Positions 19,501-63,948 of a stretch of 64,000 nt of DNA are shown piece by piece (within the stretch, counting starts at the first letter, position 1; each line of letters begins with the position of its first letter). The position numbers were made by a program, and so were the translations under genes. Source of the stretch: Laetmonice hystrix (taxonomy: Eukaryota); NCBI GenBank assembly GCA_965235115.1, contig OZ249436.1, positions 31,002,001 through 31,066,000 of the forward strand, written 5' to 3'. The notes beneath the pieces are model-generated. The model was given only the letters and a program-made list of their open reading frames with translations. It was not told the origin of the DNA and made no database searches.

Positions 19501-22500
19501 TCAAAATGATTGGCCTAATTAGCAGGGCTTTAGCCATATCTCTGCAACTTTTTTGCCAATGTTGACAATTTTGGAGTAGTTTTTCGGGGTTTTCGGTTAA
19601 TTATCACATTATCACATTTTCGAAATTCAACATGGCCGTCAATTCCAAGATGGCCGCCATTTTACCAGAAGTAGCCAAATTTTAGCTCCAAGTCAACTGG
19701 ATTTGATGACGTTTGAGTCGATTTTGTGGTTTAGAATCTATCCAGATCTGGAATCCATTTATGACATTTTCAAATTTTAAGATGGCCGTCATCTAAATAG
19801 GAAATGGCAAGGTTTTGGTCCCCAGTGGACCAATATTGATGGAATTTGAATCAGTTTCGAGGTTGATAGGTGAATGCACACGTGTGCCCCGAGATTTTTG
19901 TGAAGAGAGTAGTGACTAACTTAATACTGGTATAGGCCTACTTCATTTATTTTGCAGTAAGAAATGTAATATCAGTAACGTATTAGATAAGTAGGATTTT
20001 GCATAGTAGAATGAGAAGCGCTCTAGCACGTGGAAATCTAGCTTGAGGCGTTTTTGCAGCAAAATTGCACGTCAGTATATCCGGGAATGAGGCGAAGCCT
20101 TGAGTGGGGGAGAGGGGTCTGAAAAAATTGAAACTTAAAGTGCCAAATAGGCACTGGCATCTAGGAAAGAAATGCAAGGTGTTATCTTAGTCAGGCCGAG
20201 GGCCTTTTTTAAATTAACAGGGGCGCCTGCTGCCACCCCCTCCCCTAAATCCGCCTGTGGCATTGCGCCAGGTAAAAATCTGTTGAAGACGTTTTTGCAT
20301 GTAATGGAACATGCAAGCAGCATTTATCCTATGTATTTATATGAGAATCAGTGGCCGATCCAGTGGGTGGTAAAGGGGTTGCGAGTCCCCGGCCCTATGA
20401 CGTAATTTTTCTTTTTTTCTGCTTGAAAGGTTCAAACCAAGCACACACCCCTTCTTGGCACTCACAAGCTCCCCCCCCCCCCCCCCCACCACCACCTCCC
20501 ATTTGGCGCCAACCTGGATCCATTCCTGCATGGGAATACTATACAAATGTAATGGACAAGATATGGGGGGGGGGGGGGGCTGATCCAGGCATTTGTGAAA
20601 GGGGGCTACAGAGATAAAGCTAAGGTAAAATTCAGCGAGCGCCGAAGGTGTGAGCTGTTCCTGCGGCTTGGGGTCCGGGGGCCCTCCCTTGGGGAAAAAT
20701 TAATATGGAAGGCCAAAAAACGCTATTTCCTAGTATCTGCATGGAGACCACTTTTCTGATAGAAATATAAAGCCTGCTGGGCCACTTTTGATGATACCAC
20801 AGACGATCCCAGCCAGTGTGCAGCCAAATTAGGCCTAACATGACAATTTTCTGGGGGGGGGGGGGGTTACAGGGGGCAACTGCCCCCCCCCCCCTCCGCT
20901 AGCTACGGCCTTGGCTGTCAACATTTAGGAACAGGAATGCAGGAGACACCCACCCAACCGTCGACCAACACCCCCACAGTCCCCCAGCGCCCGGGGGCCT
21001 CATGCACTAAAGCCTTGCAAGCCCTGCAACATCGCAACAGTCTCTCAGCGACCTCGCAAGGTTTCGAACCTCATTCACAAAAGTCTCGCAATTCTGCGAT
21101 AACGCAGCAATCCCGCAAATGATCTAGCAAATCAGTTGAAATTTGCGACAGCTCACGAGGTCCCGCAAATGGTCTGGCAAGGGGTTTGAGCAATATGGCG
21201 GCAGCACATGTCATCCTAGAGGAGGAAAGAGACAACGGGTTCCTTCCAAGACCACGAATCTTCAGGGATAGAACCAACCCTCTGGATATGTATGATGATG
21301 TTGACATACTTAGGAGATTTCGGATGCCTCGGCATACTATACTTGAGGTAGTTGATCTAATTCGAGATGATATTGCACCTCAAACCATGAGGTCACATGC
21401 CATTCCTGCCACACTGCAAACACTGTGCGCCCTTCGATATTATGGCACAGGGAACTTCCAAACCGTCAGCGGAGATATAATAGGGATTAGCCAGTCATCT
21501 GTCTCTAGAATTGTAGCTCGTGTGTCCACGGCACTCTGCAGAAGAGCACCACAACTTATTCGATTCCCTCACAACCAAATTGAACAGCAACAGATTATGG
21601 AAGGATTTTATGAAAGGGCACAGCTTCCAAACACTCTTGGATGCATTGACGGGAGTCTCATTCGCATAAAGTGTCCTTCAGTTGATGAAAATGTATATGT
21701 ATGTCGAAAACATTTCCACGCGCTCAATATTCAAGGCATTTGTGATGACCAATACAAGTTTATCAATGTGGTAGCTCGATGGCCAGGGTCAGCACATGAC
21801 GCCTTTATTTGGAACAATTGCGCCCTCAGTGCCGATTTTGAGAATGGCAACTTCCGTGGGCATCTGTTGGGAGACAGTGCGTATCCCCTACGTCCGTGGC
21901 TTTTGACGCCAATTGCCAATCCACAAAATGCTGCTGAAGAAAGGTACAACCGACATCACCGCCAAACTCGTCAACAAATTGAAGGGACGTTTGGAAGGTG
22001 GAAGATGAGGTGGCTATGTGTACATGTTAACGGTAAGTCCTCAGAAAGCATGTGATTGGAAACGGGTTAATCTTAGTGTCCCACAAAAGAGGGTTCTTAT
22101 GAAACCCCTGAATCCCCTGACCACATCCCTGTATATCGTATGGTCACGAAGACCCTGTGTTACATTACTAATGTATTACACAAACTCGTGCATGGTCACT
22201 ATAATGGTCGTTAAAAGCTGTTGCTGTCGGCCGTACTTAGCTGCCCTTGTGGATTTTTCATATATTACATTTCACCATTGCAGGTGGGGCTCTTATGTTC
22301 ACGCCTGACAGATGTGTGAGGGTCATTGTTGCTACTGCTGTGTTACATAATATTTGTGAAGAGCATGGAGTTCCACTGCCACCTGATGCTCCACTGAATG
22401 AAGATGACATCCAAGATCAAGATGTGAACCCACCGATCCCCAATTTGCAACCAAACGATGGTCGTGACGTCAGAGACGCACTTGTACGTGGACATTTCAC

Positions 22501-25500
22501 ACGATAACTTTTTTCAATGAGGAAGTACAGTCAAACGACATTGATAGAGAGACTGACTTTTTATTTACTGCAAGCGGTATAGCTCTTATGATGTCAACTG
22601 ACATCATTGCGTAATGAAACGATTACACTTAATTATGAGAAGGAAGAAGCGCGTGTCGAACGCCCAGTCAGTTCCCTCTCCCACCTTGCCTCCTCGATCT
22701 GTAAACGTCTTTCTTCAATTTCAAGTCTCCTCCTTTCAATGGCCAAACGTTCTTTCTCAACTGCCAGCAATTCTTGGGAGCAACTTGTTTGGGACGGCGA
22801 AGACGTACAGACGGACTTGCGACGTTTAGATTGTGGGGCATCAGTAGTCAGTTGGTCGGGAAGGGTGACAGGCAGCTCGGTACCTAAATGTGGTTGCACT
22901 GACTCCTCTTCAAATGGGGTGGCAGGCCGGCTATGTTTCGAAGCCGATGAGTAGGTTGACGGAGTCTCAAGAAGGGCGGATTCACGGCATTCTGTTGGAG
23001 CGGGACAATCGCTACAACTCGATTCCTTTCAGTAGAAAAGAAGGTTTCATTGTTAATAATCTGTGTCAGAATAAAAAAAAAGATGGCTACAGAATTGAAT
23101 AGTGGGGAAGTATGGATCTACCTCTTTCTTAGGACGAGATTTCAAATAATCCCATTTATTTGGTTTGGAATAAAATACATTATATCTTAGCACATGAAAT
23201 AGTATCTCGTGAGAATTCTTAGACTTGCTTACCATCTGAGTTGTTGCAGTGTCTATCCCGCCAACTATTCCATGGATAGCTGTGTTACCAATAAGGCTTA
23301 CAATCCGTTCCTCCACATCTGTCAGTTCACGGGTATTTGCTTCACCTCCACCTGTTTTTCTAATGTCCTTTTTTACTTCATTGGCCCGTTTCTTAGTACG
23401 AGATTTCAAATCATCCCATTTCTTCCGCAATTCCCCAACTGTACGTTCAGCGGGTGACACAGAGTTTACAGCAATTGCAATGTTTTTCCACATTGCCTCT
23501 TTTTTGGCATTAGTGACATTATCGCTGAATTTGCTTGACAACAGTTTGTAATTTTCTTCTACCCTATCTACAAGTATGCCAACCTCACGATCTGTGAAAT
23601 TGCTTCGGCGTGTTCTCTTCGTTTCAGTCGCCATTTCTATTTGCAGTAGGTTGAATTCTGTGATGGATGTTTATTTATAGGGCTACCCGGGCGTGCGTAC
23701 AGTCAAGTCGGAAATAAACTACAGTGTAGGGCCCGATAGTCTTCTTGCACTTTGTGACCTTTTTCTTTTTATTCACACTCGCAGCTGCTGCGAGGTTGCT
23801 AACATGCGGGGTCGATGCGTGAGCATTTGTGAATACCGCGCCTCGCAACGCAAGTGTCCTCGCATGGCCCTCGCAAGTCTACTCGTAGCGAACTGCGAGA
23901 TCGCAAAATTGCGAGACTTTAGTGCATAAGGCCCCAGAGCTATAGGCGCGAAGCGCACAAGCCCCGCAGATGCGAAGTATAGGCCTACTAGTAGGCCTAC
24001 ACGAGGCAAAAGGTGCGAAGTCCGCGTGTGCTGAGAGCACAAAGCCTAGTTAGGCGGGTCCAGGGTCATGGCCCCCCAGAAATGATTTGAATTTAAGGTG
24101 TATTTTGGTGATATCTGGTGCATTTTGGAGCACAAAATAACTGAAGTTAGGGAGATCTTGGACTGTGGTGGGCCAAAAATTCACTTGTGACGTAACATAT
24201 TTATGTAGTAGCGAGTGCGCGGCCAGATCTTTATTGCTAACAATGCATCAGTCAGACTACCAGTGCGCGGCCAGTGTTTTTATGCTAGGACTAATAATTT
24301 TTAGTCAGTCTGCGAGGGCGCAGCCCGAATACTGGAACAAACATAGTAAATCAGTATGATAGCACATGAGTGCCATATCAAATCAGGGTAGCTGGCGCGG
24401 ATCGAGGGGAGGGGGCGTATGGGCGCACCCCCCCCCCCTCTTCACCAGCACGATACAAAATTACAGACAAAATAGGTAGTCACCAATCGGAATCCCCCTC
24501 CAAGATTCTGAGCCCCACGCCTCCTCCCGTTTGGGAAAACACTGGATCCGCCCTGGGTAGCAGTACGGTGAAATGAATTAACACCCATGACCCCTTTCAA
24601 GGCACTAGCCAAGATTATTCTGGTCATTTCCGGTTTCGATGGCCGCCATATTGGATTTCGTGGCCATATTGAAATTTGAAAGTTAGAAATGGATGCAGCC
24701 CTCGGATAACCCGCGGAATTGACTCAAAATTGGTCCACTGAGAGCTGAAATAGGCCCCTATAGCTACTTCCAGTTAAATGGCAGCCATCTTGGAATTGGC
24801 GGCCATCTTGATTTCGAATATGTCACATAGGCAATCAGCGTTCATAACAATTCCTAAAACCATTCAGAGATTATAGAAATGTCGAAAAAAGAAAACATAC
24901 CCAAAGGCGAATAGACCAACTTACACACACATTGAATTTCTCAAAGGGGCGAATCAGGGCGAATCCGACTACGGAACGAAATTTTGATTTTCTCAAAAGG
25001 GCGAATTTGTGCTTTGCATTTCCGGTGGTTGTATCCACAACTTCCGGTCGGACGAGTCTGAGGTTCTTAATGTTTTAAAAGGGACTGAATGTTTATTTGC
25101 ATGAAGCATACTTTACTTTGCAGTTTCATGTAATATTTGATACAAAGAACCCGTCCAAACTTTAGCCACATTTTTTTATGCGATTTTCTCAAAACGTCAA
25201 AATTCGGGATTCGCCCCTTCGAGAAAATCATAACGAAATTACAAATGTTTCTGTCAAATTCACGTATTTTGCCTGTTTAATTACAGTTATTATAACTGGC
25301 AGCTGGGACGCCAGTGAAATTAACTGTAAAAATACGCAGCTATTTTTTACAGTGTATCTGTAAACTTGTGACTAGGTATGAAATACGTAGGTTATTTAAT
25401 TTTTAATACCTGACATGATTGTATTGTACATAGTGGTCCTATTGACGAGAAGTGTATAGAATGAACCTGGTAGGGCAAGGTCCCTCGTGTTCTCCGCCGC

Positions 25501-41531: not shown

Positions 41532-43532
41532 TCACTGCCACTTTTGAAGGTTTATCTTGTTCTGTTTCTCAAAATATTTCTTAAATGAGGCAGGGTAAGG
41601 AAATGGCCACTCGAACTCATTGGGCACAATACCATTACATTTGGATTCAAAGTATGAAAACATTGGAAACCAAATCCGGGTTCGTCTGTGATCTTGCTGC
41701 ATAAGTGCACGATTGTTTGCGAGCGAATGGTAGTAAAGGAAGAGTCGAGAAGTAATGTAGAATGCCACAAATACATCAATGGAATAGTGCTCATGGGCTG
41801 CCAGTATGAAGAACACACCGAAGATGTTCAGGATCCAGGTGGTTGTATGCAACCAGTACATTGACCTTGGAGTATCTGCAAAACATTACAACCGGACCGT
41901 CAGCTGTCATCATGTTGATCTAAAGGCCTAATTCAGAAGAATGGGCTCCTGATACGACGCAAGTAAAAAAGAAATACCCGATGACTAAATGCTGCACTCA
42001 ATACATTTAGTATGATTATGTTAAGAGGGTACTTACATTCCGTGATAAAAAAGTTCAGCAGGGTTACAACCACTGTATGGCCACTAAACATGTAGTCACC
42101 ACAGGTACGCACTCCTCTCAGTGACATTCCACAGCCTTGCCAGATCTTCAATGCCCTTTCTATCTGTGACCAAATGTCACCTGGAGTCTGCAATTTGGAA
42201 GTCTTCAACTTAATTCATATTCAACCAAACCTTTGATCAAGTTTTTTTAACTCTGACAAAGTGACACAGAATGTACCCTCATGTATACCACAAAGTAACA
42301 AAAGGTGCAAGGCAAAATGGCAACCCCTCTTTTTCTACATATATGAAACCACACAAAAACAACTACACAAAATATATAATCAAAATGATACTTTCTGATC
42401 AGGTGACACTGTAACTAAGCTAGTCAAGCGACTAGCACAGGTTTGGTCACAAGGTAAGTAAACGGTAAATTTTTATTTAATTTTATTCATATCTCCCTAG
42501 CAGAGTGAGCATCAACCTACCTTAGGTTCACATTTGAGGTGGATACCAGGTACAGATAATGAGGTTATGAGCATAGTGACACATCTCAGTAGGAAGACTG
42601 TCCCCGCCATTGAAAACATCCTTCTTAGAAGTATGAATCTGAAATCAATATAAAGAGTTTACAGGTAATAAAATTCATCAAGACTAACATTACTAGAATA
42701 CATTTCAAGACTACTAGAATACATTTCACTATCATTTTATTCTAACTTAAATCTAACTCTAGTATGATTGCTCTGTTAAGGGAATACCTTGCCAAACATA
42801 TAAAAATGAAACCTGATCTGTTCACTTTGCATTTCAAATTGTACACTCATACAATTAAATATTTGCATTAACAAAAAGACCTATCTAAAACAAATTACAA
42901 ATGCCTTACCTGTGTTTATGGAAGAAAAGAATGATGGTCCATACTATCAGTAGAATGAGTCCTGTAAATTCACACATTTCAAAAGCCCACGGCACGTATG
43001 GCATATTATCTAGGACAATATCTGGTAAAGGGGGGTACTTCTTTGTATCTGGAACCCGGTCGTGAACAATTACCATCACAAAAGATGTTAGCAGAAAGGC
43101 AGAAAACATGTAGACGTAGGCAATCACAAGTTTCCTATATTCTGGTTCCAATCTCTGTGAGCGTTTTCCTTCCTTTCCATTCAGAAGTTCAATGTCATTA
43201 CTCTCTTCAGAGAGTCCTGAGCACTCACTGTCAAGTCTCCTTGGAGGCAGAGGTTCATTTGGAAATTTTTGGCCATAGTTACAAAGCAGAGAATGACTTT
43301 GTAATCTGTTGCTACCAGAGCGTAGTTTGTGTATGTGAAACATGAGTCGTTTACGATCTCCTAACACTTTTATTTCACATGGTGGTGCACTTAGATCATC
43401 TTCACACAATAAAAGCAGGGCAGCCCCATCTATCCTATGTTGAACACATAATAAACTGATGTATGAGGAGAAGCCATTCTCCTGCAGCCATTCTTTCACG
43501 TCTTCAATTGTCCATGAATCTACTCCGGCCAT
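41532..43532 (-). CDS. SAMD8: Sphingomyelin synthase-related protein SMSr (SAM-domain ceramide phosphoethanolamine synthase), ~411 aa
   Basis: Coding exons 42910-43532, 42521-42638, 42037-42187, 41532-41875. SAM domain [60 protein letters not shown]; catalytic [10 protein letters not shown] and [11 protein letters not shown] likely upstream exon ends at 45166 and could add MKGVG in frame. Confidence 0.95.
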
Positions 43533-50065: not shown

Positions 50066-53000
50066 ATGGCTGCTGTCCCTCCATCATATAGCGACTTGGG
50101 AAAGTCTGCTCGTGATCTCTTCAACAAGGGTTTCAGTATGTATAACAAGTAGTCTCAACTTTATATTCATTGCACAAAGATAAATGGCTCACTGGGCTAG
50201 AAGAAGATATCGGTTGTTTGTCTGGTTAAACAGTTAATCCGTCAACTGGCATGAAGAGATTAACATCGTGGGAATGACAATGATATTTATTACAGATTTT
50301 TTTGTAATTATGATCAATCAGGGTTCATACACCCCCTTAAAAACTGGGAAAGTCCTTGAAAAAAGAAGTTGGTCTTGAAAACCCTTGAATGTCCTTAAAT
50401 TCAAGCCTGATGCTTAAAACCCCCAGGAAAGTCCTTAAATTTTCTGAGTGGTCATTTGTCTCATCACTGGATATCACTCGGTCATGTGCATTTAAAAACT
50501 GCAGTGTAATAGATGCTTTCAGGCCTCGAATTAGAAGTTGAAAGGGGCACGGCAAAAACTGCTGTCGATACATAAGAATCAACATCAGATTTTTCCAGGG
50601 CACGGCAGCAAATTTACGATACCTGGAAAAGGAACAATGGCAAATGCTGTTGATGCCGTCGTGTAATTCGAGGCCTGTGCTTTGCTGGTGTTAACGATGG
50701 TTGCAGGAAATTCTCTTCTTGTGAACTTATACTTCAAAAACTATATATTTTTCCATGGAACTAAGACCATGGGCTGATAAGTGATATTAGTAGTTATTGG
50801 ATAGTTTACTGGTAGGTTTTTCCCTGAAAAATCTTTAAGAAAGGGGTCTTAATTACCCTGAAATATCCTTGAAAATACCCTAAAAAATCTCAGGGGAAGT
50901 GTACGAACCCTGTCAATTCACTCAGCCACATATTATTATGGATGCAGGCCTGATTTTAAGACACGAACGATCGTTTCGTTTGCGTGTCGTTCGCCTAAAA
51001 TGGAAAGGCCGAGAACAAAAATCCGTTCACCTGCAAATTTTGCAAGCCTGGGATTAACAGGTAAACGGTCGTTTAGTTCACCTGTCGGCTACCTAAAATA
51101 AAAAACGGGAACGAAAAATGGGTTGCGCAAATTTCCCCTAATTTCAGGCCTGTGGATGCATGAGTGACTCAATAAATCTTCAGGTTCTGGATGGATTCCT
51201 TGGGGGGGGGGGGGGGAAGCATAAGAAGCTATTGTGAACAGTTTAAAAAGAAAAAGTAAATTGTCCAATAGGGTTTCCACGCAAAAGTGAAAAGTCAGGG
51301 TATTTTTTTTTTTCACGGTCAGGGAAAAGTCGGGCAATTCTTTTTCAGGTCAGGGAAGATATCAATTCTGCTTAAGTCATGGAATTTTGTGGGATCAATG
51401 TGATTGACAGCCTTTGACAAATGTATTTTTGAGTGTTGCATCAATTTCCCTGTTAAGAATAACTAAGAGACTCAATACGGACATCCTGGAACTCCACACC
51501 CCCCACCCCTGCCCCGTCCTAACTAAGTGAGGTATGTTTCCAATCTAGTGTAACTGTAGAGCCAGTCAAATTCAGAAAATTCCATTTTGAAAATTCTTTT
51601 TTTTCCACTTGAATTTTAAAATTTCGTTTTTTTTCCATTTTAGTATTTTCTCAGTATACAGGGTGTCCGCAAAAAATGCACAACCATATTTGCACACCTG
51701 TCACATTTGCGAGTTTCACATATGTTACAGGGCATCTTTTTAAAAGAAAAATGGTCTTGATAACGACTCGTAGCGTAGCTTATGAAAAATTGCGAGTTCA
51801 AAACGAGTGTGTTCCAGTGGGTGTCCCGTCCACACTGCCAACCCTCTGCACCGCTGTCCGCCGGGCCGCCTCCCGATGACAGCCCTCCCGGTGACAGTCC
51901 CCTCCCCTCCCTGGCCCGTGACCCCATTGTAGGTTATATCATTTCTCGGTCAAGACAACTTTTGTCACCTGAATTTTTTTATGTAACTTGCATTTAACTA
52001 TATATATAGAATGCCTGACAAAAGATTTAAAAGCCATTTGAAAGTGTGATTCTTCCAATTTTAATTTAAAAGTGTACACCTTAAGTATATCTCAGCAGCT
52101 GTGACTGGTGGCAGATTAATCATTAACAAAGCTACTGGCATGAAGTACATTGTATGTGTACAGGCAGTCTGTGACACCAGCGCATTATATTCTGTATGGT
52201 GTGTGTAATACGGTGGATCGTTCATCTGTTACACAGTTAGAATGAATTAAAAATTTGTTAAGTTATAATTCTCTGACTCTGTAAACAGATACATGTACGT
52301 TTCAAAGTTTAGAAAAATTAAAAGCAGTGTATAGTTCTAAAATTGACATTTTTACAACTGTTTTACAGACTATGGATTCTACAAGTTAGAATGTAAAACA
52401 AAGACATCTAGCGGAGTTAAGTTCACGACAACTGGCAGCTCGAACCATGAAACTGGAAAGGTCAATGGCTGTCTGGAAACAAAGTACACTCTTCCAGACT
52501 ATGGTAAGTGGACTACTTTTACTCCTAAGTCCTTTAAGGTAGTATGATTGACTAGTATAGTTTACAAATTTAGTTAAATGATGAACCTGTCCTTACTTCA
52601 CATACCATATCAAGCAGCAAAATAACCTGTTTCGCATCGCAAATTTCTATACAACTGATGCTTTTTGCTAATCATTTTCCAAAATGTTCAGTATAATTTA
52701 GTACTATCTGCGAATCAAACTTTTATTTTGCTAGTCAAATTTTCTGGATTATTTTGCACCTTGCATATTGAGCTATACTCAGATTCTATAGCAGAGCTCA
52801 AATCTTTTTTGCCCATTTTAAGGTCTTACGTTTGAGGAGAAGTGGCAAACGGATAACACCTTGGGAACAGAGATAACAATTGAAGATCAGCTTGCCAAGG
52901 GCTTGAAGCTCTCCTTTGATACATCGTTTGCCCCGCAAACTGGCAAAAAGAGTGGCAAGATCAAGGGATCCTACAAACAGGATTACATCAACCTCAACTG

Positions 53001-55341
53001 TGATGTGGACTTTGTCTTTGCTGGGCCCACTATCCATGGTGCTGCTGTCTTGGGGTAAGGAATTTTTTTAAGTACTATATGACATAGGCCTATACTTAAA
53101 AGTGGTTTTAAACTTTGTTTAAGGCACATGTGTTCTGACTTCAGTTCATGTCTAAATATTAGGTCTAATATTTCAAGTCACATCACTACGTTTGGTACTT
53201 TAGGGGGATCTAAGATATGGTCAGCTTCTAAAGCCTGTCACTGTCACTATACTAAAAGGGTGATTTAAAGGTGAAAGATAACATATCAGTACATGTATAT
53301 ATAGTCAGATCATGGGGGTTCTGTCTTTATTGTGATTTCTTAGGAAAGGTGCTCTCTGGTCGAGGTTCTTTGCTCCACATTGTCAATATTTAGTGAAATG
53401 TGTCGTCAAGAACCAACGGTCATGTATTGAACTATAAATCCCCAATTAAATTTCTAGAAACAGGCAATTTGTTATCACCAGTTTTTTTCTGTAGGTACAA
53501 TGGCTGGTTGGCTGGCTACCAAATGTCCTTTGACACCTCCAAGTCTAAGTTGTCAAAAAGCAACTTTGCAGTCGGCTATGATGGTGGCGACTTTGTCCTT
53601 CACACAAATGTGTAAGTATTCTACAGGTCTTTTTTATTTCCTTTCACAAATAAAAATAGTGAAGGGGGAGGGGTATGATTGGCACCTTAAGACTACAGAG
53701 AAGTGAATGCTGATCGTCCTGACATAACTAAAGCATATTAGGACAGGGGTGGAAATTAACGCTCGCCCGCTCGCCCGTGGCGAGTCAAACCTCTGTTGGG
53801 CGACCTTGTCTGACCATTCATGTCGCCCTGCTGGCGATTTGTCTGCCCCCCCCCAATGGCAGTCGTCATGATACTACCGGGCAGAGAACTTAGAATGTTA
53901 AGTTCTCCAGTTGCCCAATTCCAGACCTTCTAGAGCCACAAGGCAGCACCTTCGACTGTACAGATTTCTGTGGGTTAAATGGCTGGGCAGTGGTCACGTG
54001 GAGGGCGAGTAACCCTTCACCTGAACTCGCCCTGCTGGCTAGTTCATTTACAGCAGGGCTAGTTGAATTTCTACTTATCTAGCCCTGCTGGCTAGTAGGT
54101 GATTTCCCCCAATTTCCACCCCTGTTAGGACCTGTGCAGTCATCCTCCAGTATAGTGCAAGTCAATTTCCACGATCCCAGAATTGCCGAAGGAATCGCAG
54201 ATTGCTGGATGCAACAGTGTCAAATACACATATCATATTTGCAAATCTTGCTATTTCCAGGAACGATGGAACAGAATTTGGTGGCTCCTACTTCCAGAAG
54301 GTGAATGACGAACTTGACTGTGGTGTGAACCTGTCCTGGACAGCCGGGAGCAATGCCACCAGGTTTGGTCTGGGCGCCAAGTACACCCCAGAGAAGGACA
54401 GCACATTTAGGGCTAAGATCAATAACTCCAGTCAGATTGGCCTTTCCTACCAGCAGAAATTACGTGATGGTTTGTACTGTTTGCATATTGTGCGGGGAAA
54501 TAGGAGTGTATATAGAATTTAAAGATAACAGAAAATTGATATGATTGCAAAAATATTTGATATACTTGTGAGACAACCACCCATTAAGGGCTGGGGGTCG
54601 ACTATAAAACTGTAAATTTGTAAATTGTAATAAGGTATGGGTCATGGACAGATTTGATTTATAAGTCAGGAGATATCAAGATATTCTCCTGTTTACGGAC
54701 TAGTATGATAAAAACTAAAACTGTTATAAGGTGCCTTGTGGGTAAAGCTAATATTCCATAAATGCATTAAGGCATACGTAAATGGCACACAGAGTGCAAG
54801 GTTCCATAAATCCAGTTGACACACGTTTTTGATGGCAGACGTCTGGCATTTCGGAAAGAATTGCTTCATGAAGTGAATCACTTTTTGTTCGCCAGTTCCA
54901 TACATATGGAATCTGTAATACTTCAATTTTAACCATTTCGATTTTTGTCGTACGCCGTATGCCATACAGCTGTTATGCATTAATGGAATCTTAGCTTATG
55001 GGTGAGCAAAAGTAGTAAATTTGGTCTACTTTGATTAATTTGAGTGTTTGTCGGAGACAACTCGCACTTCAGTCGAAGGCACCACTGTATGTTGGGTGCA
55101 ATCTGTGCCTGCACCGATGTAATGTTAGCCTACAAAGTTGTATTGTCTCTAGGAAAATCAAGTAGGACATCTTCTCTGAAAGACTTCAAAATCCAACTTA
55201 TTTATTACTGAACTCAAGGTTTTAAGATTATCGTTTTTATGTTTTTTAGGTGTGAGTCTGACACTGTCCACGCTGATCGAAGGCAAGAACTTCAACCAAG
55301 GTGGTCACAAGTTGGGCCTGGGACTGGACCTTGACGCTTGA
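50066..55341 (+). CDS. VDAC: Voltage-dependent anion-selective channel (mitochondrial porin), 6 coding exons, 284 aa
   Basis: Exons 50066-50135, 52369-52503, 52823-53054, 53495-53611, 54261-54469, 55250-55341. [84 protein letters not shown] at 56028-56033. Confidence 0.97.
50319..50912. mobile_element. CAGGGTTC MITE (5-bp TSD) with nested CAGGCCTCGAATTA MITE (50520-50677, 6-bp TSD)
   Basis: cagggttcatacac...gtgtacgaaccctg, TSD tcaat; inner caggcctcgaatta...taattcgaggcctg, TSD tgcttt. Confidence 0.85.
50945..51152. mobile_element. CAGGCCTGA MITE, 6-bp TSD
   Basis: caggcctga...tcaggcctg; TSD tggatg/tggatg. Confidence 0.8.
53744..54124. mobile_element. CAGGGGTGGAAATT MITE, 6-bp TSD
   Basis: Perfect 14-bp TIR; TSD ttagga/ttagga. 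Confidence 0.85.
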
Positions 55342-58300
55342 ACCTCTGCAGAATCAGTTACTGAGTACTCAAGTCACTCCGTTGTACATGAATTACCAAC
55401 CTCATAAAAAACATTGCTTTGAGGCTTGGCATGATCCCAGACCAGTGCCAAGTGTCTAGCTACATTCATGAACAGAATGATTCCACATGACAACTGCACT
55501 GTTACAGACAGAGGCGACCCAATGGTTTTTTTCTTGCCTGGCCTGCTAAGAGGAACTTTAAAATTTCTACCCGTATTACAGACGATTCAAGCCAGAGGAG
55601 CAAGCCGAGTGAACTGAGCATGTGTGTGATCCAGAAGGTAGATCGTAGCCGTGAGTGGTGCATGGATGCTTCAGTTCAGTACGTTCACCAAGAAATGTAT
55701 ATGTACAGAGATTTTGTTATGCCCTTCCATCGAAGGCACCACTGTTTGTTTGGTGCAATCTGTGCCTGCACCAATGTGGTAGTGTTAGCCTACAAGATTG
55801 TATTGTCTCTAAAGAAGCAAGGACATCTTTGGTAACTGCTGTATGGTATCGTACACAAAAGGAGGACTCATTCGGTTTTCTCTCTCTTCATTATTTATGT
55901 TTGACAGTGAATGGTTGGAAAGGCAGAGGCTTGTACTATAATGAATTGTAAACATCTGTGGGATTGTAATTAAAAAAATTGTGAATATGTTAGATGTTAT
56001 TATTTCAGATAAAATATAAAAAAAGTGAATAAAACATCTTATTGGTCCTAAAAAGTGCATTGTTTTCACCTTTTTCTGCAACCCCTGCATGTACAGGTGA
56101 GGGAGTTTGACCTGAAAAATCTTCAGATTGAATTGAAATGTGTGGAAAAGTTTGGCGATAGACGCGGTAAAATTTGGGAAGTATTAACCCAGGTGTGGTT
56201 TGCATAACGGTGCATGTGGCAGGCACGAGAGTGTATGTATGTCATTAACAGCCCCCCCCCCCTTGCATTGACTCAACCCAATGTTACGTTGGCCCCTTTA
56301 CTTTCCCAACCTTTTGAGGTGGGCACTCTCCTGGCTGAATTGGGTGAGAAGTGTTTTTTGCGGTAAAGGTGATCCAGCGAACAAACTAACCCATAAGTGG
56401 TAGCATCGGAGCCTGGTCGTAGACTTGAGCCTGTAGATTGATCAAAGGCAATCTTCTGTTAGGCTGTGAAAGTTTTTGTGAGGAATTGTTTAAAAAAAAA
56501 GTTCTCGGATTTCATCCATAACGAGAAATGCTTTTACCCGACCAGTATTCTTTAACCTGAAGTTTTATGAGCCTGTCTTTGTGACGCCCCAGAACCGTTG
56601 CAACCTAACTCATTTATCTCAGAGGTATATCTCAGAGATATCCAACAGCTCATAGAACTGAAAAAAACAGATCCAGTGCTCCAGTCTTAGTTGTCAACTT
56701 TATGAATACCGGTGGTACATTGGTGTATGAATTTGGTACGCACATCTGTGTCAGTTCATACCCAAAAAAATCTAAGTTTGTACCTGGTCCTGTTTACCAT
56801 TGGGCATAGGTTCTATTGCTTACCTGAAATTTGAATGCTTGAATATACAACCCCAACCATGTCTTGTGCATGTATAGATAGTGTTTCAGCTATACAATGT
56901 TCTTGTTTGCTGTATTTGGAGCGCTACATTAGTAGAGAGGATGGAAAGATAGATTTTTTTTTACCTCGTAGAATTGGAGGATAACTTTAAACAAGCTTTT
57001 GTCATTTCATAAACTGGTTTTGATTCTGAGAATTGATACATATTAAACTCTTTCTTTTTTTTTTCTCAAAAAGCTTAAAATTGTAGCAAGGCATGCACTT
57101 GGTAGGGGGGGATTAGGACCAATAAACTGAGGTCAATCCCCGCCCCTCACAGACCTGACAGTGACACGACATTACATAGGGATGGAGGAAGCTAGTAATA
57201 TAAGAGGCTGGGTCGTCCGTATCGATTTCTGGGCCGGACGGACAATACATGAGAGCGGCCACCTGGCCCAAGGCTTCGTCTCCCGGGCGGCCGCTCTCAT
57301 GCCCGGCAAGCACTCCGTGACAACCACCAGACCAAGCCCGCTGTGCTCGTGAACGGCGCTGGGAAATCTAGGCCAGTTGACGGACAGACAGACAGACAGG
57401 TTTGCCACGTGTTGTCGGGACGTTCAGGGGCCGGCCAGGCGTATATTATATATTGCCTGGTGTACGGTGGAAGAGCTAGAGGATGAGAGCGATGTGGCGC
57501 CATTATTGACCCGCTCAGAATTAATGTGTAACTGACGTAGCTGGGGACGAATCAAGTACAAGATGAGATGTACTAAAGTGATGTTTTAGTTTATTAATGG
57601 GAATGAGGCAGACTGCGCTTTACTGGAAAACTGTATAGCTTCGTGGAAGATATAAATAATACCGGCGGGAGGGACATTGAAGCTGTATAAAAAGAAGAAA
57701 AGTCGGTGGCTCAGAGGTTTAGGAGGATGTGCGGAAGGTGTGGGAAAATTGGCAATGGGTGGGGCTGAAAATGGCTGCATGCGTGTTCGTGAAGGTAGTT
57801 GAAACAATTCGGGTGGAGGTGGTGGATGGCAGGTAATCCATAAGTCAACAGTAGTATTGTAGGTTGTATATGTGGTGTACAACATCATGCATGACATTTT
57901 TAGGTTGTAGAATGAACGGCCTCCTTTCCGTCTCAAGGTGCCCTATGTGGCAATGTGACGTCTAGGTGACCTTCACTGTAGCAAATATGACGTTGAGGTG
58001 ACCTAGTACAGTCGAGAATTCAAGCGCATCCGCACTTCTTTGAATTTGAGAGTTCGGCTTCCACCTTGAGTATATTTTTGTTAAAGAGTTCATGCTGTGC
58101 TCTGTTTAAAAAAAAAAAAAAATTTAATATTTTTTTTAAACCAAAGGTAGATAGAAGAGATATATAAATTCGGCCATACGAATGTATCCATACTGTTACC
58201 TTGGTACGGCAGTGCGCACATCTATCATGTGTGTTTAATTATGTATGTTAACTGCATCCAAAACTTTTTATATACTTTTAGCAATGAAGAAATAGAGCAC

Positions 58301-58848
58301 CAAGACTAGCCATACATGTATCCATGTAAATTTATATGTAAGTTGAGTAGCGGGTATCTTTTTAAGGCCGGTGGTCTCGGTGCGGAGTACTATATCTGCA
58401 TGTTCCTAATTTTGCCGGGGGCGACAACCACTGCCAGATGTTATGACTGTAAACTGTAAACCACTCGGATAGTGTAGGCCTACACGTTAGACAGCTCTTC
58501 TTCACCACATCAGTCCTAGCTAGGTGTTCTCCAAGTTGGCCTTTGGAAGAAAATTAGAGTATCCCTCAACAAGCACAAGTTGAAAAGTTGGCACCCGATA
58601 CAGGCTGACTGACAGAGCGAAGTCATCCTTGGTGCATCTCGGCGTGTCGAGCCAGGTTCTGCGCATGTACACAGTACCCATCGTACGGAGATATAGAGGC
58701 CGCCAGAGCGCGGTTTACGGCCTCGGTCGGCACTGTGCACGCGGCGGCCGGGGACGGGGTGGAGGCTCAGCACACGGCGGCCGGGCAGCAGTAGTCAGTT
58801 GGACGGGGTAACGGCCACCAGTGCTGGACGAATCGCTCGCCTGTTATC

Positions 58849-61800
58849 ATGTTGAGGGTCGTCATCAGTGGCGCCCGTCGTCTCTTGCGACCCCCAACAG
58901 GTGAGCTAGCATTGGTAGTTTATAGATCTGGGAATATTCCGTGTTTTTAACCTCACGGCTCGCGGATATTCCGGTTTGAAACGGAACGCCTGGTGTATGG
59001 AAGACCTAAACGCCACATTGTTAAACATCTCGACATAGTGACATGGTATAAGTGCCAGTGAAGAGCGCGTGAATCCAACACAGCTGTGGTATGGGGCCCA
59101 CGCGGCTGGTTAAAATACACAACGGCCACGACAAGGCTGACAACTCCCCTACGAGGATTCTTAACGTTGACGTAAAAGATTTACCAATCGTGCCTTGCTG
59201 TTTCCTGACTCAAATGCTTTAGTAAAATGTGAAATACGGTGCTTCAATGGCCAGTTTACGGCTAACCCTGGGCTGACGGAAGTGGGTCAGCTTGGATGCT
59301 GCTGCGCGTAGGGCTTTTTCAACCACGAAACAGTGACCTTATATGAACTTCTTGACTGAACGCCTGATCTGACAAATGTATAGTTAGTCAGGGTAGCCCT
59401 ACCCTTCAGGTTACTTTCCCAGACAAAAACGTGGCTATATATTAGCTAATTCTGGCGAACATAGGGTACAGAGTGGGGTAAACAGGTTTAGATGCTAAGG
59501 TGGGTGTCCTGGTCGTAAGTCAGCGGTGTGCAAGACCCGCAGCATGCAGTCTATTGGCGTGACATGTTGTGAATCGAGGTATGCGTATCACAAAGCGATT
59601 GATCAATCGATACGCTGAGGGGAAAACTTGTAGGACTCTGTTAGACTTAGATGAGGTTCCTACCACCCAAAACTCCACCTGCAGACTCCAGGGAGACCCA
59701 AGACGTACCGGTATACTTGCTACACGTATACATATCGTTGACTTGACTGTATGCTCTGACCCCGATTTGACTCGCCCCAGTTTGCCTTGGCCTGCGTGCG
59801 TCTGCTTATTTTGGACGACAAGAAACGATACATTATTTATTATGGCAAGACATCCTGATCCACACAAACAGGCCCGTCATGTCATAGCCAATCCAGGCTG
59901 CAACTACTCCAGTACACCGATGTGTATATAGTAGGACTTACCATACTTACTAATTACCCTCCATGTGATACTTGTAGGTCAGAGTTATGGCAGGGCTGTC
60001 CGAAACGCCATGTGGTAGTGGCGGTCGTAATGTTTATAACCTATATGATCACCGAATAATCCTGAATTCTCTTGATTGCTTATTCCTCATCTGCCGAATC
60101 TAACTATATCTACCGGCAACGGCTGCACCAACAGAATCAGTTTGATATCGGGGTTATGCAGGAGGTGCTGCATGAGGAATAGACTGTAGTACTGCTAATA
60201 TTCTAGGATGCTGTCCACATGGTAGCACTAATGGATGGGCCGTGTTAATTATGGATGGGGTGACACCAGGTCGAGCCATGAAGAGCTTCAGGAGAGACGG
60301 AAAGGGCAATCAGGGCAGACACAGACAAACCCTGGACAGCCGTGTCCCGAGCCTGTGAGAGTCTCACTGCTGCTGTGGCCAGTGGCATATTTAGGGGGTC
60401 GGGGCAATGGCACTGCCCATTTAAACTGGGTTAGATTGATCAACATGTGTGTGTTTAGGCACTGGTCATAATTTTCTAAATACGCCACTAGCTGTAGCAC
60501 TCGATATCGGAGAGTCTCTCTGCGGATTTCCCGGCAGACCAGTGCTGTATATCTCAGTACATGTATCAAAATCTTATACATATTGGTGCGATAAGGTTAC
60601 TGGAAATTGCTGGACTTAATGCATGAACAACAACCACTGAATATAATTCAGACCAGACTTTATGACATTGAAAGAGTTATTCCTGCTTGTGTCGTATATT
60701 GTGTGGGAAAGGTGAATCCAAGGTGGCCCAGATCAATTAGGTTCAACAACCCAGATCCTAATCTGTAATCCTAATCGGTACTGCCAGAGGATCGCCTCAG
60801 GTGCCGACTTGGTGTATAAAATCACCCCTCACCCCTCACCAGGGCCTAATTTAAGACACGTGACGTCTGCTTATTACATTATGTATATCTGGGCGCCAAC
60901 TCCAGGAGCATACTTCCTCGTGGTGTTAGCAATGGAATATATACATTATTATGTTAACAGAAGTCAGTGTCGGAGACTCCTCTGAGGCATGTTGCATCCT
61001 AACAATCCCTGACAGTAGTCCCCCATACATAGATAAGGCCATCATGCTATATGGGGGTCCCTCAGTCACGTACATTGTAGATCAACGGTTGTGTCTGGCA
61101 TGGCATACAGGGCACAGTAGAATAATTAGGGGGGGGGGGTAATGTGTGCATGCAAAGTATAATTCAGCTGCGGATCCAGGATTTTGGTAGGGGGGGCGTT
61201 AAGGGGGAAAATTTGCTTGAAGGAGGTAGCATGGTCAATTCAGAAAGTTCTAGGGAAAAAAAGAAAAATTGGCTGCGGGGGGGGGGGGGGGTACTCCGCG
61301 CCCCCGATCAGCCACCTTATTTAACACCACGGTTGTCCGCATTCATATGGTATATCAAGACAAAGCAGAAAATGCGTAATATAATAGTTTGAAATCATTT
61401 CTATGCTATTGGCATGTTTACTATCAGCGCCCCTGCACGCCACCAAACCCATCGACTCCTGCATGTTGTTTCTGGCAATGGAAGTATGATTTTGGTATTG
61501 GGTGTGGAGGTCGATATATATACCAACCAGTAATCATGTTACTCGTCCGTTTTCTAAGGATATAGTGCATCTGCCACGCGATGCCAAGGTCTGGCCTTCA
61601 GTGGTGGTTTTTCCTGCTGTCGCTTTTTTTTCTACGTCTGGTTCAAGTTGGACTTGAGGATTTAGGATTACATCTGCAGCCAAGGAGAGCCAGAACGAAA
61701 CGACGGAAAGAACGTCCATCGGGAATTGGCGGGCATAAAATTTGCATTGTGGGTTTTATTGGACAGTTGGGAAGGCTTCACAAGATTGGAAGAGTCCTGC

Positions 61801-63948
61801 CGAAAGACCTGTTGGGCACCCTTGAAACGCAAAGGGCATCAAAATACAGGCTACATACTATGACAATACGGGTGTTCCCTATTCAAGCGCCAAGCCTAGC
61901 TCCCTCCCCTAGAAAAATGTGAAAATTACAGTGCAAAATTATCGTTTTCCTGGCATCTGGGAACAATAATAGGCCTATATGGCAATTTTCTGTGGGTTTA
62001 CAGAACTATGCCCCCTAGCTATACGATCCCGGGACTATGACCTCCAAACTGAATGCCATTTTGTTCTGATCAACAATAATTATATTCCCCCATAGTATAC
62101 ATGCAGTAGACTACAGGACTGTTTCCACAGGCAGCCCTATACTGAGAACGAGTATAGATTTCTGAAATCCTATAGGCCAATACATGTATAGAATATCTTA
62201 AATCACCTGGTAATAAGAGGAAAAAGTCATGGTAGTATATAGATCTAGCTGCAGTGAGGGATACCTTGCCTATGTTGATGAAAGAAAGAAGGCGACTTAA
62301 AAATATTCGAGAAGGGAATGGGGTCACGTATTGTACGTGTACAACACATCCAGTGAATAGAGAAACGTTATCCGATAACTTCAGTCTTGCCAATATATCC
62401 GAGAAACATTCAGTATAGAAATATCATAATGGGTATGCCTTTACCGTAATGATTGTTAAGATGTCGGTAGTTTTTCTATCAGACCCCCTCACTATTTGGT
62501 CTTTTTACTGTGTTTTCGCCGTGAAGATGGCCCTGAATGCATGCCAAAAATTACGGAATAAAACCACCATTACTCACTCACTCCCCCACTCATCTGTGAG
62601 ACGGTAACAGGTAACAGTTCTATATGAACATGGTAGCATTGTAAAATATTACGTATTCTGATAGTACAATTTTTGCGACAGTATTATGCCCGTGGTATAT
62701 TTCCCCCATAGCACTTTCTGACCAGGCTGACCCCCCCCCCCCTCAAAAAAGCAAATTCTTCCCCTAAACCCCCCTTACCAAAATCTTGGATCCGCCCCTG
62801 CGTATATACATGTATGCAGTTTTAGTATGGTAAGTAACGTAGAACACCATTTGTTATGATTCCATCTTTAGGTGGCATCGCCTGTCAGTCTCAAGCCTTA
62901 CACACTTCACAACGGCTGGCTGCCGCCAAATTGTCCGATTTCCAGTTGCGAAAGATTACGCAAGACTTCGACCATGTTTATGGTAGGTGAAAAGTGCATT
63001 ACTTTAAATTGGCGTAATTGATTAGGCCTATATTTAATCAGCTGTAATATAAGTGTGTTGTCCGGTTACATGTCCCTAGGAACGATTACTTCCATAATCG
63101 ATAATGACAGTTACCGAGGTGTTCTTAAAAGTCATTCAACATCAAGTATGTACATGTAACATAGAATTCTAAACTTCTTTCCATATGGCTATATGGCTTT
63201 TACTTATTGAATTTTTTCTTTTGTTTCTTCTGATTTTAGATAGAAATAATGACGGATTTATTGATAAGTCGGACGTCCAAGCAGTTAAGAATGTGAGTAA
63301 TTTTGGTATCTCCAAACTATTGGTGTTAGCATGAGGTGTATGATCACTGGTTTAAAGAATTATTTCCAGTAATACGTGCATGGTATTCAAAATTATTTTT
63401 CTGCCATTTGTCACTTTTAAAGTTCTTTTATTATTATCACCCTGCTGGTATATAACTGAAAAGTATTCATATATTATACAACTATTATGTTATAGGCCTA
63501 TACATGAGAAGTTAACTGTATAATTTTACAGCGACTGCGGACTTACACAGAGAACGTACATGGTAGAGCCATCAAGGACGTATACAAGGCTGGATTTGAC
63601 GATTTTTGGGACATTTTAGTCAGCGTCGCCGACACTAACAAGGATGGGTTTGTCTCGAGGTAGGTCTATATTACGCATTTTCTGCCCAAATGTAGTCACC
63701 GCATATAATTATAACAAAATTATAACTAACCTTTAGTGGCGTTATAAATAAAAGACACCATTCTTTAAATATCTTTAATTATCAGTGCTGCGATGTTACA
63801 AAAATATTATGTAAACTGTATTCCAGGGAGGAATGGGTCCGTTTGTGGGAGGAAATCGTTGGAGGAAAACCTGTCATAGAACCGAAATCACTGCCTCAAT
63901 GGGTACGGATGGTACCCGCTTCCTTATTCCCAGTATTAGATGCCAAAG
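58849..63948 (+). CDS. Calexcitin / sarcoplasmic calcium-binding protein-like EF-hand protein with N-terminal extension (partial; continues beyond the window)
   Basis: Phase-consistent exons 58849-58900, 62872-62982, 63240-63292, 63532-63659, 63827-63948. LSDFQLRKI..F...YD; EF loops DRNNDGFIDKSD and DTNKDGFVSREE; LPQWV..LFPVLDAKG (start of EF3). Not in the ORF track because the exons are short. The link to exon 1 is inferred from phase and composition. Confidence 0.8.

Follow-up and report, generated by a model that had tools for sequence, protein, structure and literature searches.

Calexcitins and sarcoplasmic calcium-binding proteins (SCPs) are treated as cytosolic EF-hand proteins that start at their core domain without a targeting peptide, and the amphioxus and crab SCPs are cytosolic muscle buffers. 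The known mitochondrial EF-hand proteins belong to other families (MICU1-3, EFhd1/mitocalcin, SCaMC/aralar, Miro and LETM1), most of them placed in the intermembrane space, at the outer membrane or bound to membranes. In squid calexcitin (2ccm) the core starts near residue 6 and in amphioxus SCP (2sas) at residue 2, with no leader in either; PMC13042319 ascribes to calexcitin an action on K+ channels and ryanodine receptors. The closest precedent for a mitochondrial location is the photoprotein clytin2, an aequorin-family member from Clytia hemisphaerica that belongs to the related EF-hand superfamily and has a leader of 30-50 residues that was predicted, and seen to localize to egg mitochondria; that study regards mitochondrial leaders on such photoproteins as hydrozoan-only (PMC4043110). 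Here we examine 64,000 nucleotides of Laetmonice hystrix DNA (assembly GCA_965235115.1, contig OZ249436.1, 31,002,001 to 31,066,000 of the forward strand; hereafter the window, numbered from its first base), which carries at 58849..63948 (+) the 5′ part of a gene for an EF-hand protein with a presequence-like N-terminus. We consider it moderately probable that this gene represents a conserved, apparently undescribed subfamily of the calexcitin/SCP fold with a cleavable presequence, acting as a soluble Ca2+-binding buffer or sensor in the mitochondrial matrix. Mitochondrial import itself, counting this role together with the other mitochondrial role considered below, is predicted from the sequences with decidedly greater confidence.

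The gene was resolved into five exons on the forward strand, with GT donors and AG acceptors, that join in frame to give 155 codons without a stop and continue past the end of the window. Exon 1 (58849..58900; 17 codons, beginning with the ATG, plus 1 base; donor 8/9) encodes the first half of an amphipathic, Arg-rich leader. Exon 2 (62872..62982), identified by tblastn and by comparison with the genomic relative L002, encodes the second half and then the start of the calexcitin core, whose first Leu lies at 62931. The EF-hand 1 loop, with Asp at position 12, is encoded by exon 3 (63240..63292), helices and most of the canonical EF-hand 2 loop (from 63631) by exon 4 (63532..63659), and the end of EF-hand 2 including Glu12, a linker and the start of EF-hand 3 by exon 5 (63827..63948). 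Two more exons, as in L002, are expected beyond the window. Within the 64-kb window no second copy of the gene was found by tblastn. Within intron 1 a short repeat of high copy number occurs twice in inverted orientation (61165-61291 and 62733-62800); both copies have very high read depth and are ordinary dispersed elements.

Candidate first exons were defined as ATG..GT segments of phase 1 between the stop codon of the upstream VDAC gene and exon 2. Among 194 candidates with 138 distinct donors, eight had a donor of at least 7/9 and only 58849-58900 reached 8/9, the best of the 138. An in-frame stop lies upstream of its ATG, and the bin that includes it (58700-58999; GC content 0.61, observed/expected CpG 1.14, 31 CpG) is the highest of 25 bins of 300 nt between 55400 and 62900. 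The GC- and CpG-rich sequence before the ATG (58700..58848, +) is a probable promoter and 5′ untranslated region (UTR). A comparable exon, with an 8/9 donor and a presequence-like product, appeared in 3% of 300 Markov simulations under criteria set after the sequence had been seen. A short open reading frame (ORF) rich in Arg and Gly, at 58665-58811, starts from a separate upstream ATG in another frame and ends before the main ATG.

From these features we infer that exon 1 is spliced from 58900 to exon 2 at 62872. L002 has its acceptor at the corresponding position and in the same phase, exon 2 is phase-1/phase-1 in both genes, and residues 18-53 of the relative P0014 aligned to 62880-62981 by tblastn with 62% identity, reaching into the leader. 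If exon 1 were unused or restricted to a minor isoform, if translation began at another first exon or at the in-frame ATG at 62856..62858 (+), or if the import signal were weak, the protein of this species would be cytosolic or dual-localized. That ATG, within the final 16 bases of intron 1, could give rise to a shorter form only with the acceptor left unused; no sign of its use was found. The best of 138 donors, the CpG peak and the shared acceptor instead favor the long form, as does the cDNA-like record L001, which encodes a full leader that begins with Met-Leu-Arg as it does here. A cytosolic or dual location gains some weight from the joint having been inferred and not read from RNA, from the Gln at position -10 of the processing site described below, and from the Clytia clytin and green fluorescent protein genes, for which transcripts with and without leaders are recorded (PMC4043110). 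On balance we regard it as rather improbable.

The initial annotation had described an Arg-rich, acid-free leader with an LHTS motif before the usual family start, and the five in-frame exons bear this out: the 37 residues ahead of the family start motif include the LHTS, hold 5 Arg and 1 Lys, and lack both Asp and Glu (net charge +6), whereas the first 37 residues of the core hold 7 acidic residues. The chance of an acid-free leader is approximately 0.001 at the composition of the core and approximately 0.009 at a generic 12%. Presequence-like amphipathicity has a threshold near 7.3 in hydrophobic moment; the best 18-residue moment was 12.2 in the window leader and 8.5-10.4 in its relatives, compared with 3.1 for the N-terminal extension of the control P0016. 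At 62892..62921 (+) the leader contains a site resembling the R-10 motif R-X-(F/L/I)-X-X-(T/S/G)-X4, which PMC11626719 gives as the mark of two-step processing by MPP, the mitochondrial processing peptidase, and by MIP, the mitochondrial intermediate peptidase. The site has Leu at -8, Ser at -5 and Gln at -10, and the mature protein is predicted to start 3 residues ahead of the core Leu.

A leader of this kind might also route the protein to the secretory pathway, the intermembrane space or a membrane surface. The leaders of the clade hold 1-3 Cys, and that of the window protein has a 17-residue uncharged run, as such a destination might predict. However, no secretory h-region was found: the best 9-residue Kyte-Doolittle mean was 1.63 in the window leader and 0.56-1.09 in five relatives, so the leaders lack a hydrophobic core, and the R-10 motifs point to matrix peptidases. 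Another destination is thus very improbable, and the matrix remains the predicted one.

Database relatives allowed the leader to be compared across a clade. A search with exon 5 gave a spliced relative whose cluster includes a full-length protein of 246 residues (P0008). Searches with P0008 and next with a profile yielded P0009, P0010, P0013 and P0014, and three loci (L001-L003) came from a scan of metagenomes. L001 records P0008 in a cDNA-like form that lacks introns and has stops in frame ahead of the ATG. L002 is genomic and shares intron positions and phases with the window gene; of the four shared exons two are identical in length (53 and 122 nt, exons 3 and 5) and two are one codon longer. 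The 14 matches of the profile search comprised five clade members, five unspliced clade exon fragments, one canonical calexcitin-like protein (P0016) and, outside the clade, two leaderless EF proteins that are probably bacterial and one unrelated sequence (P0021). In other single-exon searches, exon 4 matched a single unspliced ORF (P0001), exon 2 matched nothing in the PDB and exon 5 matched nothing named in the ESM Atlas. Of the six matches in the exon 5 search that gave the spliced relative, two (P0004 and P0005), long proteins with repeated short matches, were dropped. No vertebrate member turned up in the relative searches made.

The core of the window protein was 45-57% identical to those of six clade members. 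Core identity was 45-73% within the clade set and 27-35% to P0016 and the leaderless P0017 and P0018, and in the tree the seven clade rows lay on one side of a 98/99 branch, apart from these three.

Leaders were present in all five relatives with a visible N-terminal region: P0008 (43 residues, net +5), P0010 (37 residues, net +7), P0014 (36 residues, net +8), P0009 (20 residues, net -1, possibly 5′-truncated) and exon 2 of L002 (20 residues visible, net +4). None of the clade proteins begins at the Met that is usual for the family. P0013 breaks off four residues ahead of the core and is uninformative. P0016 has an 18-residue acidic extension before a second Met, which is not presequence-like. 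A strict R-10 motif stands next to the core in four of the five relatives (L002, P0009, P0010 and P0014), in each case matched by only 1-3% of composition shuffles, and in three of these four the predicted mature start falls exactly 2 residues before the core Leu. In sequence the leaders have diverged widely (2-13 identities over 20-37 positions) compared with the cores, and despite this low overall similarity the P0014 leader still aligns into the window leader on exon 2. Drifting letters with conserved chemistry and motif position are what selection on a presequence predicts. These comparisons support the leader as a property of the whole clade and not of the window protein alone. The mitochondrial import that the initial annotation had proposed is upheld as a prediction by the leaders of all five informative relatives and by the strict motif in four of five.

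Exon 5 of the window gene had its best PDB match in squid calexcitin 2ccm (residues 84-119), weak when taken alone (expect value, E, 0.15). P0008 matched squid calexcitin (E 6e-24), amphioxus SCP (3e-18), crab SCP (2e-16), juvenile hormone diol kinase (3e-13) and, at 1e-4 or weaker, photoproteins, and the clade profile matched calexcitin with E 1e-27. A structural model of P0014, not of the window protein itself, had a mean predicted local distance difference test (pLDDT) score of 81.7, with leader residues 1-33 under 50 and a confident core; its top Foldseek matches were calexcitin and 2sas with template modeling (TM) scores of 0.77-0.83 (2ccm 0.82 by target, E 6e-9). A model of P0008 built from four rows reached only pLDDT 52 and was set aside. 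These matches and the P0014 model indicate that the window protein has the calexcitin/SCP fold.

The initial annotation had counted two canonical EF loops. Both loops are intact in the window protein. The count holds for EF-hand 2, which is strictly canonical with Glu at loop position 12; EF-hand 1 has Asp at that position, as in squid calexcitin, and its Pfam match (EF-hand_5, E 0.0009) was below the curated cut-off. Among the relatives EF-hands 1 and 3 are kept clade-wide and EF-hand 4 is degenerate, the window covering EF-hands 3 and 4 only in small part. The C-lobe around EF-hand 3 and the C-terminus is strongly conserved in the clade, at aromatic, His and Gly-Pro positions that P0016 does not share.

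This clade-specific C-lobe conservation, combined with decay of EF-hand 2 in some members, would also fit a protein that is mitochondrial but serves mainly as a Ca2+-switched ligand-binding protein, an enzyme or a partner-specific sensor in place of a buffer. The fold is used in this way by juvenile hormone diol kinase, photoproteins, coelenterazine-binding protein and okadaic acid binding protein, all four of which were among the fold matches. Nevertheless, calexcitin and amphioxus SCP were closest to the clade, ahead of the kinase (6e-24 for calexcitin versus 3e-13) and far ahead of the photoproteins (E 1e-4). We therefore consider such a specialized function unlikely, and a Ca2+ buffer or sensor remains the preferred role.

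In the mechanism that we propose, exon 1 would splice to exon 2, and the basic amphipathic leader would carry the precursor through TOM/TIM23. MPP would then cut before the bulky residue at -8 and MIP would remove the remaining octapeptide. The product would be a soluble mature domain of approximately 190 residues, its N-terminus lying 1-3 residues (6 in one relative) ahead of the start usual for the family. Inside the matrix this domain would bind Ca2+, and probably Mg2+, at EF-hands 1 and 3 and in some members at EF-hand 2, and would in this way buffer or report matrix Ca2+. Clytin2 has a mitochondrial leader, so such leaders can work on this fold.

Several observations weigh against this interpretation. 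No read spans the 58900 to 62872 joint. A run search with a 9.8-kb, mostly intronic query, in which a small RNA can stay hidden, listed three runs, none recorded as RNA; they are DNA-like contigs of one sample with no joint at the exon borders among those displayed, and are uninformative on splicing. The window protein and P0008 keep the -8 and -5 residues of the R-10 motif but lack the Arg at -10 (Gln and Cys, respectively), and shuffles often produce this looser -8/-5 motif (32% and 45%, respectively). The presequence was judged by our own criteria, set after the sequence was seen. The visible P0009 leader has a net negative charge, with the caveat of its possible truncation; in favor of a presequence, its three acidic residues all follow the predicted cut, beginning right behind it. 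The relatives are not independent samples, because they share ancestry, and some could be paralogues. The outgroup of the tree consists of three rows only, two of them flagged as long branches. Finally, EF-hand 2 is degenerate in P0014 and departs from the consensus at position 12 in P0010, so Ca2+ capacity varies within the clade.

Among described proteins, squid calexcitin (2ccm and 4ndb-d) was the best match in both sequence and fold, with the same start motif, Asp12 in EF-hand 1, a degenerate EF-hand 4 and a similar C-terminal tail, but with only approximately 23% structural-alignment identity and without the leader. The amphioxus (2sas) and crab (7wbo) SCPs have the same fold and EF arrangement (TM 0.77 and 0.70) and, in 2sas, likewise no leader. 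Juvenile hormone diol kinase (6kth and 7pjd; E 3e-13, TM 0.75) is a calexcitin-fold relative but is an insect enzyme, with no leader in the aligned chains, and was compared by overall similarity only. None of the other families of mitochondrial EF-hand proteins named above (MICU1-3, EFhd1, SCaMC/aralar, Miro, LETM1) was among the 19 PDB matches of the clade profile. Because the clade resembles calexcitins and SCPs in fold and EF pattern but departs from their leaderless and, by prediction, from their cytosolic character, we file it as a variant of that family. An ESM Atlas cluster named 'calexcitin-2-like' (249 residues, 57 members, mostly Mollusca), with room for approximately 50 extra residues, ranked third by features (0.91) and second by structure for P0008; it may be the annotated form of the clade, and is a lead only, known here by its cluster entry and not by its sequences.

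Clytin2, in contrast, is a photoprotein and much more distant from the clade (E 1e-4 or weaker for photoproteins, and lower fold ranks), and the two probably gained their mitochondrial leaders independently. The initial annotation did not recognize such a protein as described. Among the titles and abstract openings listed from the open-access literature, supplements excluded, there was no description of a mitochondrial calexcitin, nor was there one in passages of PMC13042319, PMC9934868 and PMC3570280. This does not extend to the wider superfamily, since the leader of clytin2, a related photoprotein, has been published (PMC4043110).

The possible significance lies in matrix Ca2+ buffering. According to a 2023 review, known matrix components such as phosphate and ATP do not obviously explain measured mitochondrial Ca2+ buffering, a contribution at low Ca2+ comes from an unidentified buffer, and the identity of the buffers needs further work (PMC11550887, section 2.6.2.1). 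We tentatively suggest, at somewhat less than even confidence, that an old and widespread invertebrate subfamily of the calexcitin fold serves as a dedicated soluble matrix Ca2+ buffer or sensor at low free Ca2+. If so, a soluble imported EF-hand protein would be a named candidate for a matrix buffer in invertebrates and would make the influence of a protein buffer on matrix Ca2+ transients directly accessible to genetics. Expressed in cells without the protein, it would be a natural tool for the effect of protein buffering on matrix Ca2+. It would also represent a second, probably independent, move of the fold into mitochondria after hydrozoan clytin2. The clade would not by itself explain mammalian buffering.

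The initial annotation had placed the gene 3.5 kb downstream of VDAC and had read VDAC, SMSr and the EF-hand gene as an endoplasmic reticulum (ER)-mitochondria lipid/Ca2+ neighborhood. The positions and identities were confirmed: the VDAC gene runs from start codon to stop at 50066..55341 (+; Porin_3, E 5e-20 and 3e-22), the SMSr/SAMD8 coding region lies head-to-head with it at 41535..43532 (-; ATG at 43532; SAM_1, E 1e-12; PAP2_C, E 8e-15), and the ATG of the EF-hand gene falls 3,508 bases past the VDAC stop. Between VDAC and exon 2 there was no sign of a hidden gene, none of 94 ORFs of at least 42 codons having a Pfam match. A segment of approximately 90 nt occurs twice with 89-91% identity, in the last VDAC intron (55064-55151) and in the VDAC 3′ UTR (55721-55811); its read depth is near single-copy and its folding was not better than that of shuffles (z -1.0 and -0.8). 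Rfam gave nothing in the window, and nothing at a relaxed threshold in 54900-56100.

The functional reading of this neighborhood is a separate question, and it fared less well. In its favor, the three genes are consecutive, and the SMSr-VDAC linkage is old. Against it, linkage of old gene pairs is often retained in the absence of any common function, and a protein of the matrix would have no contact with VDAC, which lies in the outer membrane. In gene lists of human and sheep SAMD8, VDAC2 and COMTD1 stand in succession, and in chicken they fall in one 1-Mb interval (PMC11339866, PMC10376747, PMC13196519); the gene that follows VDAC2 in vertebrates is COMTD1. Because SAMD8 and VDAC2 are linked in vertebrates too, the SMSr-VDAC pair is most simply a very old linkage, inherited as microsynteny with a different third gene. 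In mammals both genes are connected with mitochondrial apoptosis that ceramide triggers. Synteny was not mentioned in the papers matched by the one literature search on SMSr, VDAC and ceramide. The L001-L003 contigs (1.9-3.6 kb) contain neither VDAC nor SMSr and are too short to be informative on linkage. A functional ER-mitochondria neighborhood is accordingly improbable.

Elsewhere in the window, a DDE_Tnp_4 transposase ORF (21123-22052, +) faces a Myb/SANT-like ORF (23056-23670, -) within 21123-23670, a pairing that we take to be the arrangement of two genes seen in PIF/Harbinger transposons. Genes resembling ionotropic glutamate receptors (Lig_chan and Lig_chan-Glu_bd, on both strands) extend from about 250 to 36300, in an apparent local cluster of at least three.

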